Shown piece after piece: positions 7,295-31,391 of a DNA stretch of 39,770 nucleotides. The notes below the pieces were generated by a model. The model did not search any database and was not told the DNA's origin. It saw nothing but the letters and a program-made list of their open reading frames with translations. Position numbers and translations under genes: made by a program. Source of the stretch: a virus (lineage: Duplodnaviria; Heunggongvirae; Uroviricota; Caudoviricetes). The stretch covers positions 1 to 39,770 of IMG/VR virus record IMGVR_UViG_2778261456_000009; one strand, given 5' to 3'. Within the stretch, counting starts at the first letter, position 1. Every line of letters starts with the position of its first letter.

Positions 7295-9279
7295 TAACCC
7301 ACCCTCACCTGATTACTTCGCATGACCTGAGCATTTGCAGACTGTTGCCGACGTGCAACCTCATTACCGACAGCGTGCGGATCTCCGCCACCGTAAATGT
7401 GGTAGGTATTTTGCTGGTTAACCTCTGTCACTTTGCCACTAATTCCCGCCACGGCAGCCTTATTAATCAGCTCTCGAGAATAGATATTTCTTCCATTCTC
7501 ATGCTGGATAATGCTGCTCATCAATGCTGACATGGTTTGCGGATCGCTCATATTCAGGGCAGCCCGGGGATCCACTCCCAGTCGTTGCGATACAGCCCTG
7601 ATATACGCGGTTGTGTTGTTATTATCAGACGCAGGTGCCCAGGTAGAGATAATTTTCTCCACACTGTTTATTCCCCGTCCGGCGTACAGCATTAACTGAC
7701 GAGCAAGAGCCCGTAATCCATCAAAAGCAGTTTCAAATCTGGCAAATCGCCCGCCCGGTCGTTCAAGAGAAGCCCCCGCCTGACCAGCAAAATTAAGGTT
7801 TCCCGGATTGTTATTCCGTTCTCCTCGCTTCGTAGCCTGTGCATGTTGTTCCGGCTCAGCACCTGGAATATCTGACTGAATATTTGCGCCTTTTACGGTA
7901 TGAGGATTACGACCAAAATCGGTATCAATGCCAAGCCAGCGCAATGAATCTCCAATATTTTGTTTCGTGTAATCCCAGGATGACTTCGCACTGGCACCAA
8001 TATTTTCGCGATCGGAGTACAAATAAGCAGCATAAGCCATCCAGCCTTTTAACCATGGCGGTACCGGCAAACCAGATATTTTCCCGAAAGCCCCCAGAAC
8101 CCTGGATACCCAGACACCCGCGATGAATGTACCGAGGATTTCCAGTGCATTTTGCCAGCCGCCAACACCATCTTTTAGTTCCAGAAGGTGATCACGAAGC
8201 CAGGTGATCGCATCCTTCGCTTTATCTATTGCCGGTTGCCATTTTTCCCAGTCGATAAGACTGTTACCGCCTTCTTTCCATGTTTTGTAGTCTTCCCACA
8301 AGAGACCGAGAGCCACGATCAGACCGGTAATCAGCCCTATAGGTGACATCCAGAAAGTAGAGTTAAGTATCCGCATGGCGACAACCAGACCGCCGATAAC
8401 CTCTATCAGGGTTTTCGTTTCGGCATCCAGTTTCCCCCACCACTCGATGATATCTCCGACACCATCGACTATCCGAAATGCTACCCGCCCGACTATCTCA
8501 CCCAGCCAGAGGATCCCCTTTATGACCTTTGTGATGGTGACTTCAATTTTGGGAAAATTTTCAATTATCTTTTTGCGCAGGTTATCAATCTGCCCCGCCA
8601 GTCCGTCCGCAAGATTCGATCCGATTTTGTCCCGCGCCATCCCGGCCATTTCACCGAGCGATTTCAGCGAGGTCATAAACCGGTTTGACGATAAGGCAGC
8701 CTGATCGGCATTAAATCCGATCGCTTTCACCATTTCTGAATACTGAGCGCTGAACTGCCCCACTCCGCGACGCATAGCCATCAGGGTATTTTCGTCAATG
8801 CCCAGCATCTGCGCATACTGGTTAGCCCGGTAATACGGCATGCTGCTGAGTTTCTGTCCAACGCCCGTAAAGATAGCAGCCATGTCACGCATGTTACCGC
8901 TGGCATCACGGGTCTGTACGCCCAGGCGATTCAGAAAGCCTTCTGCTCCGGGATTGTTACGAATAAACCTGGAGAGGCTTTCCAGAGAAGATCGCGCAGC
9001 GTCCACACTGCCGCCAACCTGCGAAACCGCATAGCCAATAGACTGAATTCCCTGGACCGTCGCGCCGGTGCGCTGTGACGCCCAGTAAAGATTATCCAGG
9101 CCGGAGGCGATCTTAGCCGTGAAGGCCACCACGGACAGCGCAGCTCCTTCAACAGCCAGCCCCATTTTGATGACATTTGCAGTTGTACCGGCGAGGACAG
9201 AACCGAACTTTTTCGCTCCTGCATCATCCACACTGAAGCCAAGCGAGACGAGGAAATCTTTAATAGTTTCAGCGTTCAT
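7294..9279 (-). CDS. Tail tape measure protein
   Basis: About 660 aa, Ala/Gly-rich helical N-terminus, central hydrophobic segments, C-terminal globular domain; first ATG at 9279 preceded by GGAGAGAGG (track start at 9300 is TTG). Confidence 0.7.
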   Translation of the reverse strand: MNAETIKDFLVSLGFSVDDAGAKKFGSVLAGTTANVIKMGLAVEGAALSVVAFTAKIASGLDNLYWASQRTGATVQGIQSIGYAVSQVGGSVDAARSSLESLSRFIRNNPGAEGFLNRLGVQTRDASGNMRDMAAIFTGVGQKLSSMPYYRANQYAQMLGIDENTLMAMRRGVGQFSAQYSEMVKAIGFNADQAALSSNRFMTSLKSLGEMAGMARDKIGSNLADGLAGQIDNLRKKIIENFPKIEVTITKVIKGILWLGEIVGRVAFRIVDGVGDIIEWWGKLDAETKTLIEVIGGLVVAMRILNSTFWMSPIGLITGLIVALGLLWEDYKTWKEGGNSLIDWEKWQPAIDKAKDAITWLRDHLLELKDGVGGWQNALEILGTFIAGVWVSRVLGAFGKISGLPVPPWLKGWMAYAAYLYSDRENIGASAKSSWDYTKQNIGDSLRWLGIDTDFGRNPHTVKGANIQSDIPGAEPEQHAQATKRGERNNNPGNLNFAGQAGASLERPGGRFARFETAFDGLRALARQLMLYAGRGINSVEKIISTWAPASDNNNTTAYIRAVSQRLGVDPRAALNMSDPQTMSALMSSIIQHENGRNIYSRELINKAAVAGISGKVTEVNQQNTYHIYGGGDPHAVGNEVARRQQSANAQVMRSNQVRVG

Positions 9280-22582: not shown

Positions 22583-23125
22583 TCAAGCTATTTTTTGAGC
22601 AAATGATTCTCGCATGGGAATATATAGGACATACTCAGCAACTGCCAACCAATTAGCAATTCGCTTTTCGCATGTGCTAAAACACCACTCAGGATGTGCA
22701 TCATTCAGCAATTCAGCCATTTTGCGCTTAGTCATCCCCCGCCCTTCATACCGTTGCCGGAGGACACTAATCAATCCAGGATGCTCTGCCAGCACCTCAC
22801 TTATGACTCGATCAATACATAACGCCTCTGCATCAGTACAATGCGCCAGCCAGGTCTTTTGCTTGCCATTGATCATCTCTCGCAAAAACGCTTCCAGCTC
22901 AATTTTATCCATTCCCGCTTTTTTCATTCTGCGCAGGGCTTCATTGATGGCTGTTTTCGTCAATTTTTTGGATGCCAGCAACTGGTTAAACATATTCCCC
23001 GTCTTACCGCCGCCAATATACGACCAGCGCCCCCACATGCGCAGTTTTCCCTGAATCCAGACACTTTCCAGCGTGGTGAGACGAAGGTGTTCCCCGCTTT
23101 TGCCTGTATTTGTTGGGTAAATCAT
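22583..23125 (-). CDS. Putative late-gene antiterminator (Q-like) by position
   Basis: 180 aa from ATG at 23125 (ATGA overlap with upstream gene); occupies Q position between nin-like genes and late leader; family not confirmed. Confidence 0.45.
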   Translation of the reverse strand: MIYPTNTGKSGEHLRLTTLESVWIQGKLRMWGRWSYIGGGKTGNMFNQLLASKKLTKTAINEALRRMKKAGMDKIELEAFLREMINGKQKTWLAHCTDAEALCIDRVISEVLAEHPGLISVLRQRYEGRGMTKRKMAELLNDAHPEWCFSTCEKRIANWLAVAEYVLYIPMRESFAQKIA

Positions 23126-28684: not shown

Positions 28685-29431
28685 TCACTTCGCAATTCCT
28701 GGCTGGACGACATTCGGACGCCAGCTCTCCCAGTTAAAATTCACCCATCGCCCGCCGTTCATGGTCATGCGATCCATAATCCGCTCGCCGAGCAATGTTT
28801 TCATGGCCTCATAGTTCAGGTTTGTCAGCATCCCCACGCTGCGCATCGACGCTGTCCGGCGATCAACAATCTGGTGCAGCACCACCTGCTCGTTTTTTGT
28901 CTCGCGCTGAATGCCAATTTCATCAAGAACCAGCAGATCCACTTGGCACAGTTCCCGCAAAAATTTTTCGCCTGATTGCCCGTCGTCATAGCTGGCGTGT
29001 AGAGCACTCATGACATCAGCCACGGTAACCACAATCACTGTCTGGCCATCTTTCAGCAGGCGATTCCCGATAGCCGCCGCCAGATGGTTTTTTCCGGTAC
29101 CAGGTTTTCCGCTGAACGCAAAATTTGTACACCCGGTCATCAGTTCATCAGCGATAGATTTCGCCTGGTTCAACGCGTATCGCTGACCGTCGTTCTGCAC
29201 CTGGTAATTCGCAAACGAGCATTTGCGGTGCAATGGCTGGATGCCAGAGCGATTCAGAATTTTTTCCACCCGCAACTGACGATTCTGACGGTTGATCTCC
29301 TCACAACGTTTCTGGCCTTCGGAAAGTTGCCACTCGCGCCACTCCGCTACCGTTTTGAATGGGGCGGTTACATGTGGCGGGGCCAGTCTGCGGATACGTT
29401 CAAGAATGCCTCCTGCCGCAATATTTTTCAT
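28685..29431 (-). CDS. DnaC-like helicase loader
   Basis: Walker [16 protein letters not shown] and Walker [10 protein letters not shown]; directly downstream of initiator gene. Confidence 0.85.
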
Positions 29432-29437
29432 GGTCAG

Positions 29438-30568
29438 TTACCCCCTGAAGCCTGGCGGGATCGCACTATCCGGTAACGAGACGGTGTTAACCTGTCGGAG
29501 TAACGTCTCAGGTCGAACACCTTTTGGCGCGAACAAGCCCTGGTATTCATTGGCGATGCTGTGTCGAATCACCTGCTCAGGTGAAAAACCCTGCTGGCGG
29601 AATTTTTCCAGCTCCCGTATCGCCCCGTTAGCGCCCTGCTCCGTTCGAATTGGTTTTCGCAATGCCTGCCTGAACTGGACCCACTCATGCCAGAGTGTTT
29701 CCGGCAACCAATCGGGCAGAGCAACTGACAACGGGTCGAATTTTTTCTGGCGAACCGCCCCACCGATAACCAGAATTCCCTGCTCGGTGTGCCTTGCGAT
29801 ATCACTGCGCCGCAAGACACATATCCCGGTTTCAACAGCACCGATTTTGAGCAATGATTTTTGTCGTGGAGAATTTCGGTCAAGTTCGATCCCACACCGG
29901 ACACCGTTCCTGTCAGTCACGACGATATCAATCCGCCCTCCGCAGCCGTCTCCACGCTCTGGTACCGGATACTCACGACAGACATCCAGGCCAGCAGCCT
30001 GCAACGCCGCCACCGCAGAATTACAAAATTCTGCTGCAGTACCGCCAGACAATCTCCCCTCAAGCACTCCAGCCACAAAATCCCGAAACTCCCTTCCGGA
30101 AGGGAAGGGTTTGGGATGGGTTAGATCAGTATTTATATCTTCCTCTTCCTCTTCCTCTGGTAACGCTTTTTGATCCGTTTGTGTAACGCTGCCAGCGTTA
30201 CCTTTTCGTTTCAGTTCGCGTATTTTTGTTACTCGCTCGTTTGTAACCGCCCGTTTTTTAGAGCTTTTCCCGTTATGACGTTCAAAGTTAGGTAGAGAAA
30301 GCCCACCGTCATTTTCGACCAGCCATCCAACCTGAATTAACGCATCAGCAAAACCAGCCATAAAAGTGATGCGATCTATTGCACTTTTTGTAACGCCGCG
30401 AGCGTTACAATCTGCATTACCGTCTATCATTTGTTGATCCGCCCATGCCCAGAAGCGAATAACCTTCCCTAATGCGGCATCTGGATCAATATTCAGAATC
30501 TCAGCAAGCCTGAATATTTCCGGCTTATCCGGCGTAATAACCTCGAGCTTTATCCAGTTTGAAGCCAT
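29438..30568 (-). CDS. Replication initiation protein (replisome organizer N-terminus, DnaT-like C-terminus)
   Basis: 376 aa; acidic linker (EEEEEED); C-terminal region resembles DnaT-like domain of lambdoid O-type proteins; followed by DnaC-like gene. Confidence 0.7.
   Translation of the reverse strand: MASNWIKLEVITPDKPEIFRLAEILNIDPDAALGKVIRFWAWADQQMIDGNADCNARGVTKSAIDRITFMAGFADALIQVGWLVENDGGLSLPNFERHNGKSSKKRAVTNERVTKIRELKRKGNAGSVTQTDQKALPEEEEEEDINTDLTHPKPFPSGREFRDFVAGVLEGRLSGGTAAEFCNSAVAALQAAGLDVCREYPVPERGDGCGGRIDIVVTDRNGVRCGIELDRNSPRQKSLLKIGAVETGICVLRRSDIARHTEQGILVIGGAVRQKKFDPLSVALPDWLPETLWHEWVQFRQALRKPIRTEQGANGAIRELEKFRQQGFSPEQVIRHSIANEYQGLFAPKGVRPETLLRQVNTVSLPDSAIPPGFRG
30183..30201. repeat. 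19-bp perfect palindrome GTAACGCTG-C-CAGCGTTAC (copy 1 of 3)
   Basis: Read directly; inside initiator gene about 125 codons from its start; a related GTTAC-N10-GTAAC element lies at 30228-30247. Confidence 0.5.
30389..30409. repeat. Palindrome TGTAACGC-CGCGA-GCGTTACA (copy 2 of 3)
   Basis: Read directly; inside initiator gene about 55 codons from its start. Confidence 0.5.
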
Positions 30569-30580
30569 TTGTTTTCACCT

Positions 30581-30601
30581 TGTAACGCTCGCAGCGTTAC
30601 A
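30581..30601. repeat. Palindrome TGTAACGC-TCGCA-GCGTTACA (copy 3 of 3)
   Basis: Read directly; 13-33 nt upstream of initiator ATG (30568). Confidence 0.5.
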
Positions 30602-30645
30602 TTTAACTGATACCGAACAAAACAATCCGGCACGATTAATTTCAA

Positions 30646-31068
30646 TCAATGCACTACGACAGAATCGCCGGGCGACCCACCACCGCTGAAATGTGCTTTC
30701 CGGTAAACGGCCTGTACTGCATCATCATGCGCATCAATTGCCGTACTCAACGCTTCCTGCGCCGCCAGTAATGCACGGCGTTCCAGGGTATCGAAGATGC
30801 AGAGTCGGTGACGCAGCTCGCGCGGAAGAATTGCCAGAACCGCAGGGATGAGTTTCTGAATTTTTTCCCTTTGCGCTTTCGTTTCACCTTTCAACCAACG
30901 GTGATAGATATTCTGCTGATTGTTCCAGTCCTTGCCTGGTACAAGGGGCAATTCGCCGCCCCCCTGGCGCAGATATTCTTCAGTAATTGCGTTAGCGACC
31001 CACGCCTGCCCTTTTTCGGCTGCCAGGGCTAACAACACTGATTCGATGTGCTCATGCCTGATTTTCAT
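30646..31068 (-). CDS. ydaT: YdaT-like (CII-position) protein
   Basis: 140 aa, near-identical to recalled Rac YdaT (MKI.HEHIESVL.ALAAEKGQAWVANAITEEYLRQGGGELPLVPGKDW...); ATGA overlap with upstream cro-like gene. Confidence 0.65.
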   Translation of the reverse strand: MKIRHEHIESVLLALAAEKGQAWVANAITEEYLRQGGGELPLVPGKDWNNQQNIYHRWLKGETKAQREKIQKLIPAVLAILPRELRHRLCIFDTLERRALLAAQEALSTAIDAHDDAVQAVYRKAHFSGGGSPGDSVVVH

Positions 31069-31310
31069 GAATCAACCGCTCCTATGCTGTTTTCGCTATG
31101 CTTACCGTCTGGGGGGAATACATCGTCAAGTCCACAATGAGCACCAAGCCGATTAAGGGTAGAAACAATTTTTCTGCACTCCTCTAGCCCAGGGGTACGA
31201 AAATTTGCTTCGTAATTTGCCAGTCGGCTTTGTATCCACCCTAACTGAACAGCAAGTTGTCTTTGAGACAGCCCAAGCTGTTTTCGATATGTTGAAATTT
31301 TGTTCATCAT
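31065..31310 (-). CDS. Cro-like HTH regulator
   Basis: 81 aa with HTH (LGLSQRQLAVQLGWIQSRLANYE); AGGAGG RBS; divergent from repressor gene. Confidence 0.65.
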   Translation of the reverse strand: MMNKISTYRKQLGLSQRQLAVQLGWIQSRLANYEANFRTPGLEECRKIVSTLNRLGAHCGLDDVFPPDGKHSENSIGAVDS

Positions 31311-31329
31311 TACCTCCTGTTTCTATTAT

Positions 31330-31391
31330 TCACATTTCGTGAGTGAGATCAACTACAGATACGTGAGTACCGCCAATTTCACACATCGTGA
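31330..31391. promoter_or_regulatory. OR-like operator cluster with divergent promoters
   Basis: TCACATTTCGTGA (31330-31342), TACAGATACGTGA (31354-31366), TCACACATCGTGA (31379-31391), centres 24-25 bp apart; minus-strand -35 TTGATC / -10 ATAATA flank site 1; TAAAAT (31392-31397) 7 nt before repressor ATG implies leaderless mRNA. Confidence 0.5.

Follow-up and report, generated by a model that had tools for sequence, protein, structure and literature searches.

The stretch of DNA analyzed here (39,770 bp; IMG/VR record IMGVR_UViG_2778261456_000009, Caudoviricetes), which we call the window, carries a gene for a YdaU-like replication initiator together with three copies of a 21-bp palindrome, two inside the gene and one just ahead of its start codon (Table 1). 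Several Escherichia coli genomes contain a Rac-like lambdoid prophage that matches this region with 100% identity. The initiator gene follows genes for Cro/YdaS-like and YdaT/CII-like proteins and precedes that for a helicase loader; a cI-like repressor gene, on the plus strand, diverges from these, and a RecE-like gene is found further along. Comparison of related loci leads us to read the palindromes as probable recognition sites of the initiator itself, arranged around a candidate origin of replication.

Table 1. Genes, palindromes and associated elements of the initiator locus (positions in the window; offsets are counted from the initiator ATG on the gene strand).
Feature	Position	Strand	Remarks
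Cro/YdaS-like gene	31065-31310	minus	
YdaT-box	31058-31075	minus	TTGATTCATGAAAATCAG on gene strand; overlaps ydaT start codon, as in K-12 Rac; matches footprinted box
YdaT/CII-like gene	30646-31068	minus	
Palindrome 3 (site 3)	30581-30601		Perfect match, TGTAACGC-TGCGA-GCGTTACA on gene strand; starts at -33
Replication initiator gene, YdaU-like	29438-30568	minus	376 residues
Initiator domains			N-terminal domain, residues 1 to ~135; inserted domain, ~158-270; DnaT-like C-terminus, 284-376
Degenerate direct half-site	30414-30421	minus	GGTAATGC; 12 bp upstream of palindrome 2 on gene strand
Palindrome 2 (site 2)	30389-30409		Perfect match; starts at +159; codons 54-60 (CNARGVT); family-wide proximal intragenic site
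Half-site pair GTTAC-N10-GTAAC	30228-30247	minus	On gene strand, GTTAC at +321 and GTAAC at +336
Palindrome 1 (site 1, linker site)	30182-30202		One mismatch; starts at +366; codons 123-129 (GNAGSVT); inner pair of linker cluster
Half-site, GGTAACGC-type	30160-30167	minus	GCGTTACC on gene strand; +401 to +408; outer right half-site of nested cluster
Homopurine tract, 21 nt	30138-30158	minus	AGAGGAAGAGGAAGAGGAAGA on gene strand; directly after half-site cluster
A+T-rich patch	30124-30137		GATCAGTATTTATA on plus strand; ~12 A+T-rich bases; adjoins homopurine tract
DnaC/IstB-like helicase loader (YdaV)	28685-29431	minus	PF01695, 3.7e-20; annotated ydaV; directly downstream of initiator
DUF1627 protein gene		minus	Same gene group as initiator

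Palindromes in and beside the initiator gene

A search of the whole window for TGTAACGC-N5-GCGTTACA, with up to three mismatches allowed, returned exactly three matches, all in or at the initiator gene; shuffled sequences gave 0.14 on average, and a count of three was reached in none of 100 shuffles. The three copies named in the original prediction were recovered by this search, and a similar density of the motif throughout the genome, which had been named as one observation that would count against it, was not seen within the window. The centers of the palindromes are 207 and 192 bp apart. Counted in 500-bp stretches, GTAAC/GTTAC is densest in the stretch that starts at 30097, with nine copies against a mean of 1.24. 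Two palindromes fall within the coding region, as had been proposed, and the previously noted GTTAC-N10-GTAAC element is likewise present between them; palindrome 1 encloses a perfect 19-bp palindrome (30183-30201). Palindrome 3 is the non-coding copy, and its 3' end lies 13 nt ahead of the initiator ATG, adjoining the Shine-Dalgarno sequence AGGTG (30576-30580). The earlier placement of this copy at the promoter and ribosome-binding region therefore held for the ribosome-binding site, but a promoter scan found no promoter-like site at the palindrome, nor any sigma-70-like promoter between ydaT and the initiator gene. The initiator is probably transcribed from a promoter on the cro side, near 31325-31352.

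Both intragenic palindromes are accompanied by additional half-sites. The degenerate half-site ahead of palindrome 2 is a perfect GGTAACGC at the same position in phage Rac (MN652886), and the 12-bp spacing of direct half-sites recurs in Raharianne, CBW1004C and Uetakevirus relatives. Palindrome 2 itself encodes a predicted interhelical loop of the N-terminal domain (AF2 residues 52-60), where the predicted local distance difference test score falls below 50 at residues 54-57. The linker site, palindrome 1, is the inner pair of a set of nested half-sites in the order right-right-left-left, spaced by ~12/14/12 bp in Uetakevirus and in the epsilon15 class. The Rac type has its outer half-sites at a greater distance, separated from the inner pair by 23 and 31 bp, an additional one to two helical turns or so; the outer left one is the GTAAC at +336. 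Equivalent outer half-sites occur in three further loci (L083, L086 and L093 in our numbering) and in the epsilon15 class.

Directly behind this cluster lies the longest homopurine/homopyrimidine run of the window. Of 20 diverse family members, 16 have a homopurine run of 21-29 nt in this place, often the identical AGAGAAGAGAAGAGAAGAGAAGA, and no homopurine run elsewhere in the genomes of epsilon15, BUCT554 and Raharianne is longer than the one that follows the linker site. Arginine codons within these runs are AGR in 36 of 36 cases, compared with 24% elsewhere in the same genes. The guanine plus cytosine (GC) content drops to 0.375-0.40 in 40-bp segments across 30100-30159, compared with 0.51 for the whole gene, and strong strand asymmetry starts in the segment 30120-30159. 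Codons ~107-144, which contain the site 1 cluster together with the homopurine tract, lie between the N-terminal domain and the remainder of the protein, where natural domain swaps break. We propose the homopurine tract, on these sequence features, as a candidate unwinding or loading element. A GATC (Dam) site is located at 30124-30127, inside the A+T-rich patch. In several relatives, of both site classes, a C-rich palindrome, CCCCCTAACCCCCCAAGGGGG or a variant of it that encodes PPNPP-like linkers, follows shortly behind the homopurine tract, at +430 in L085, +433 in L090, +451 in L093, +424 in L384 and L246, and similarly in L381; it is not present in the window.

Conservation and covariation with the initiator

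Sequence variation among relatives indicates how the palindromes are constrained. Across 76 unique close-relative sequences, the mean minor-allele frequency was 0.0055 at the 48 arm positions, 0.051 at third codon positions, 0.079 at the 15 spacer positions and 0.025 in upstream non-coding DNA, so that variation in the arms is ~10-fold below that at third codon positions, and the spacers are free to vary. Isolated single-base arm changes aside, the three palindromes are all in place in 80 IMG/VR relatives with protein identities of 95% or more, and nearly all variation within them falls in the 5-nt spacer, often as non-synonymous changes. Far beyond this group, (G)GTAACGC-N5-GCGTTAC(C) is found at ~+148 and ~+357-368 in phages with 42-67% identity in the N-terminal domain, on hosts of six genera: Enterobacter (BUCT554), Escherichia (ZX5, TL-2011b), Klebsiella (phi3.2), Xanthomonas (Olaya, CP2), Ralstonia (QkW1) and Pseudomonas (PAN70, VW-6S); CBW1004C also has sites of this type. 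Both intragenic copies in the window encode xNAxxVT in one shared frame. In the codon alignment (GGT AAC GCT ... GTT ACN), however, the third positions are T/C/T/T despite an initiator-gene GC content of 55-62%, with rare T-ending codons retained at the sites in high-GC phages, and the linker site is read as GTA ACG in Uetakevirus versus GGT AAC in other relatives. A conserved peptide cannot explain the motif, because the reading frame differs, the third positions are fixed and one of the copies in the window is non-coding. As judged from these alignments, the palindromes are under strong selection at the level of the DNA.

The motif is also closely tied to the initiator gene. Among the first 120 IMG/VR matches listed for the exact sequence GTAACGC-N5-GCGTTAC, 102 stretches carry an initiator homolog, and in those the sites lie at +139 to +165, at +337 to +441 or upstream at -32 to -44, save for two copies several kb away. 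Both intragenic sites, with up to two mismatches, are present in 77 of 87 non-identical loci (chance, 0.0015 per interval), spaced 189-259 bp apart with modes at 207-209 and 216-219 bp. The original prediction had taken the wide spacing as unlike lambda iterons, which it is, and as a hint of some other dimeric factor; the spacing proved instead to be a conserved trait of the family and not a pointer to another protein. The upstream site, at -32/-33 or -42/-44, occurs in only 21 of the 87, all with an initiator at least 69% identical to that of the window, including one locus (L351) that keeps it though the preceding gene is not ydaT. By this distribution, palindrome 3 is an extra copy restricted to the Rac-like clade. 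In the complete genomes of epsilon15, BUCT554 and Raharianne, the only sites of the respective class motif are the two inside the initiator gene, just as the window has its class-motif sites only in or at that gene.

Two further searches were narrower in what they can show. The alignment-based search for related loci ranked its results by similarity to the first sequence and returned close relatives only. A pattern scan of genome contigs (596 Gb), for which ~2,200 chance matches are expected, is dominated by such matches and says nothing on the frequency of the motif; an initiator homolog was present in 8 of the first 120 matches listed, and all three site pairs 204-228 bp apart lie at the canonical positions of initiator homologs. 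Several contigs stood out. Two from metagenome-assembled genomes assigned to Planctomycetota (L431, Pirellulaceae; L457, Phycisphaerales) have both palindromes canonically placed in the gene for an initiator homolog that shares 60-62% identity with the Xanthomonas/Ralstonia phage type, which reflects either an unexpectedly wide host range or a binning artefact. Seven contigs from Vulcanimicrobiota, Synergistia and other metagenome-assembled genomes (L415, L421, L426, L427, L436, L442 and L500) have two pattern matches offset by 7 bp with no initiator homolog near them; these double matches look like an unrelated repeat family with tandem GTAACGC-like units. A CP2-like contig (L266) has an extra exact GTAACGC-N5-GCGTTAC at 528-546, far from its initiator gene.

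At these two gene positions, other lineages of the family carry another palindrome, similar in its geometry (5-N9-5, with one additional base in Raharianne). Vibrio phage 1.211 and seven relatives carry GTCAC-N9-GTGAC at both, with the encoded Asn changed to His. Epsilon15, PAT1, BUCT711, Ralstonia phage RPZH6 and Pseudomonas phage phiPSA1 carry GTCCGC-N7-GCGGAC at both, and Cobetia phage Carin1 has an exact copy at the linker position only; for this palindrome, 73 of 80 IMG/VR relatives have exact copies at both positions and the remainder have one mismatch. Ralstonia phage Raharianne carries GTAGACG-N6-CGTCTAC at both positions. Different classes occur within a single host or virus genus, as in Uetakevirus, in Gervaisevirus on Ralstonia and among Klebsiella phages. 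In phages of the epsilon15 type (epsilon15 itself, L092, at 342-1511) and the Vibrio type (phage 1.211, L088, at 504-1508), the gene immediately ahead of the initiator encodes a C-5 cytosine DNA methyltransferase and extends over the start codon of the initiator.

Natural module swaps bring the classes into direct comparison. Phages QkW1 and RPZH6 share an upstream gene (85% identical), the C-terminal part of the initiator (89%) and the loader (99%), whereas the N-terminal 125 residues are only 36% identical. Klebsiella phi3.2 and BUCT711 are likewise 97% identical in the initiator C-terminus and 95% in the downstream gene, and 39% identical in the N-terminus. Each pair differs in palindrome class as it differs in this N-terminal segment, and the two DNA sequences become homologous again at the homopurine tract. 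A reader supplied by the host, or by genes outside the swapped segment, would no longer find its sites after such an exchange, which points to the N-terminal domain of the initiator as the reader. Apart from the initiator, no neighboring gene family is common to 16 diverse loci. As far as these sequence comparisons reach, the sites are specific to the initiator family and co-vary with its N-terminal module, in at least four site classes.

The initiator protein and its neighbors

The initiator has profile matches at both ends. Residues 1-152 match phrog_2509, annotated as a replication initiation protein (4.5e-85), and the C-terminus matches phrog_6451 and phrog_678, the latter ("replication initiation O-like") covering residues 273-350 only. 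The last 90 residues match the C-terminal domain of DnaT (2ru8, E = 1.4e-4; 9zbt), and relatives are annotated as "primosomal protein I" or "DnaT-like ssDNA-binding domain"; the protein reaches 16 bits with the NCBIfam DnaT equivalog model, far below the cut-off of 201 bits. Its N-terminus has no match among Pfam models, NCBIfam models or PDB sequences. With Pfam, no family was found for the whole protein at E <= 0.01, nor for the N-termini of 10 diverse members. Near-identical genes in RefSeq are labeled "YdaU family" or "DUF1376 domain-containing", but the corresponding Pfam and NCBIfam models do not match the initiator N-terminus, and "YdaU-like" is used here as an annotation label only. 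A profile search with the N-terminal domain retrieved more than 5,000 protein clusters (90% identity), among them those of Rac-like E. coli prophages, Uetakevirus (epsilon15) and phages that infect the plant pathogens Xanthomonas and Ralstonia; the family is common among temperate phages and prophages of Proteobacteria.

The YdaU of phage Rac (MN652886) and most close relatives are 262 residues long, compared with 376 here. The difference is an extra domain of ~115 residues (29741-30124), inserted right behind the homopurine tract. It matches phrog_1347, of unknown function, and very weakly the restriction-endonuclease-like Pfam family REase_MTES_1575 (E = 0.14), and its stretch GRIDIVV...GIELDR resembles a PD-(D/E)xK nuclease motif.

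The YdaT regulator encoded just upstream has its own palindromic operator. The footprinted YdaT-box of Rac is ATGATTCATGAAAATCAA, located over the ATG of ydaT itself (PMC11879457), and the YdaT motif of CP-933P is TTGATT-N6-AATCAA (PMC9986795). The window has the equivalent box at the ydaT start, and a weaker match with two mismatches (30632-30649) lies just past the ydaT stop codon, ahead of the initiator gene. None of the three palindromes matches the YdaT motif ATGATT/TTGATT-N6-AATCAA. YdaT is ruled out as their binder by this different motif of its own and by the relatives that keep the sites without having YdaT.

The palindromes do not read as intrinsic terminators of the initiator gene, as none of the copies is followed by a T-run on the gene strand. 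On the plus (antisense) strand, palindrome 1 followed by CTTTTCGTTT (30183-30211) scores as terminator-like, at site 1 only; the T-rich tail is found in Uetakevirus relatives, not in Xanthomonas phages.

Interpretation and comparison with known systems

We hypothesize, with moderate confidence, that the palindromes are the cognate sites of the initiator and that they form an intragenic, dispersed origin combined with an autoregulatory module. The original prediction had left two readings side by side, origin sites or targets of a separate dimeric regulator or a partition/exclusion factor; we favor the former and not the latter, because the sites belong to the N-terminal module of the initiator, not to YdaT, and persist with different neighbors. 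The N-terminal domain probably binds as a dimer, with one subunit per GTAAC half-site (5-N9-5 geometry). The origin core would consist of site 1, its flanking half-sites (30160-30167 and 30228-30247), the 21-nt homopurine tract and the A+T-rich patch (the last two spanning 30124-30158). Site 2 would serve as a family-wide second anchor ~200 bp away, in the coding sequence of a DNA-binding-domain loop, and site 3 as an extra copy of the Rac clade placed against the ribosome-binding site. Initiator dimers would occupy the palindromes, and the complexes on these dispersed sites would associate and loop or wrap ~400 bp, distorting the intervening DNA. The strain could then open the homopurine/A+T-rich tract, where the DnaT-like C-terminus and the DnaC-like loader would bring in the host DnaB helicase. 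With sites 3 and 2 occupied, the initiator gene would also be less readily transcribed or translated, which would provide autoregulation.

Extended to the whole family, the same elements can be read as a split origin, in which one site lies in the DNA-binding-domain loop, with the peptide GNAxxVT dictated by the DNA, and the other in the linker, followed by the homopurine element. Reader and sites would then make up a single exchangeable cassette, existing in at least four classes and swapped at the tract, and looping would both fire the origin and throttle the gene. We advance this extension tentatively, as a possibility that we would not yet call probable.

Several observations weigh against an initiator-bound origin. 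We infer both the identity of the binder and the firing of the origin, the binder from co-inheritance and co-variation, and the sites sit within the swapped segment and would be exchanged with it physically whatever protein bound them. No residue pattern separating the GTAAC from the GTCAC class was found; seven residue positions separate the GTAAC from the GTCCG class, among which we propose no specificity determinant. The A+T-rich patch is short, the dip in GC content is modest and there are no DnaA boxes near the sites. The spacing between sites (189-259 bp) is not locked to the helical repeat, which weakens strict looping, and phase-locked looping is not claimed here. Xanthomonas phage Olaya (L511) has two extra exact sites far from the gene, at 7397-7415 and 23003-23021. 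The exact motif is expected by chance ~1.6e-4 times per genome in the Xanthomonas phages with extra sites; in these, the initiator may have further targets, or further origins may exist.

That the palindromes are initiator operators for autoregulation only, with the origin elsewhere in the prophage, is the likeliest of the alternatives, though we regard it as unlikely. Plasmid Rep proteins use inverted repeats as operators, and the position of site 3 against the ribosome-binding site and of site 2 early in the coding region would suit such a role, as would the weakness of the A+T-rich patch and the Olaya sites outside the gene. An origin elsewhere would, however, have no initiator site at all in epsilon15, BUCT554, Raharianne or the window. 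It would also leave aside the homopurine run behind the linker cluster, conserved at the DNA level and the longest in the genomes examined, and no promoter-like site was detected at site 3. A distinctly improbable role, in our estimate, is that of hairpins in RNA or single-stranded DNA, controlling translation or stability or offering the DnaT-like domain a structure for primosome assembly or priming. In RNA, palindrome 3 is predicted to pair into a 9-bp hairpin that immediately precedes the Shine-Dalgarno sequence (z = -2.6); as single-stranded DNA, the linker region outdoes its shuffles in folding (z = -2.95), site 1 scores as terminator-like on the antisense strand and the C-terminus resembles the single-stranded-DNA-binding DnaT. 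The conservation of the arms, and their complementarity through compensatory class switches, fits a hairpin too and is in this respect a further point against protein binding. Yet structure alone would allow any compensatory pair, whereas the 7-nt arms are constant from E. coli to Xanthomonas phages and the 76 close relatives contain no compensatory arm change at all. All four half-sites of a genome switch in concert, moreover, and the half-sites in direct repeat at 12 bp cannot pair with each other.

A different binder, whether YdaT/CII-like, Cro/CI-like or another phage regulator, a partition/exclusion factor or a host factor, seems very improbable to us. Palindromes are typical targets of dimeric regulators and site 3 lies in the ydaT-initiator intergenic region, but YdaT already has its known and different motif at its own start codon, the sites are kept in relatives with different immunity or regulatory neighbors, with no other neighbor family shared, and the classes differ within the same host and virus genera, tracking the initiator N-terminus only. 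Because site classes differ inside one virus genus and among phages on hosts of one genus, we reject a host factor. We give almost no weight to the last explanation, that the conserved islands are recombination linkers for module exchange or by-products of the xNAxxVT peptide. Homology between the swapped phages does resume at the homopurine tract, but the palindromes lie inside the swapped segment rather than at its edges and differ in sequence between classes, and the recombination-linker idea is viable for the homopurine tract only. The peptide is shared, in one frame, by both intragenic copies in the window; against it stand the non-coding upstream copy, the different linker frame of Uetakevirus and arms that are frozen at synonymous positions while the amino acids of the spacer vary. 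Reading frame and synonymous sites thus rule out constraint at the protein level as the cause.

The function of the Rac ydaUVW genes was called undetermined in a 2023 paper (PMC11014345), and no description of an origin or of DNA sites for the YdaU-like initiator family was found in the searchable literature. That an origin can lie within the initiator gene is a classical principle, already known from lambda. New here, at the level of sequence, would be its occurrence in a different and very large initiator family, with dispersed palindromes at fixed codon positions, a half-site core joined to a homopurine element and co-varying site classes. This gives the family a candidate origin and a candidate initiator recognition code, with four natural specificity classes and domain swaps to exploit. 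If the hypothesis is true, the gene would be a clear example of a protein sequence constrained by the DNA site for that very protein, and it would aid the prediction of replicon compatibility and of module exchange between prophages.

The closest model is the lambda origin, with its iterons and AT-rich tract in the middle of gene O (PMC7466680). As in ori-lambda and other lambdoids such as Stx phages, the initiator gene itself contains the proposed initiator sites, within the stretch encoding the linker between N- and C-terminus. They have dyad symmetry, and behind them comes a strand-asymmetric tract with a short A+T-rich patch, a possible counterpart of the unwinding region; site specificity and N-terminal domain appear to be inherited as a single module, and the gene order (cI-like, cro-like, cII-like, initiator, loader) is the same. 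Unlike lambda O, the initiator N-terminus has no match to the Pfam O-protein family or in the PDB, and the two are unrelated by sequence. Lambda has four to six tandem iterons ~20 bp apart; here there is one full palindrome at the linker with half-sites around it, the other full sites are 207 and 399 bp from site 1, and a run of at least four close ~19-bp tandem iterons is absent. Where lambda has a long AT tract, the candidate unwinding element here is a homopurine run conserved in the family; the C-terminus is DnaT-like, and a DnaC-like partner takes the place of lambda P.

The YdaT-box of Rac and CP-933P is, like the sites described here, a palindromic operator of the same early-right operon, and ydaT lies directly upstream of site 3, but the two kinds of palindrome differ in sequence and geometry. 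The C-terminal 90 residues link the initiator to E. coli DnaT (primosomal protein I), which is not known to have a sequence-specific origin-binding N-terminal domain of the kind proposed here.

Iteron plasmids offer a second comparison. In F, R6K, P1 and pPS10 the same Rep protein acts at the origin repeats and at an inverted repeat of its own gene, and distant extra sites could act by looping or handcuffing. The origin iterons of these plasmids are direct repeats bound by monomers and the operator alone is inverted, whereas all full sites at the initiator locus are inverted repeats within the coding sequence, apart from the upstream site 3, at which no promoter was detected. By analogy, what the initiator would share with the plasmid Rep proteins is a dual role, with one protein serving as both initiator and autoregulator.

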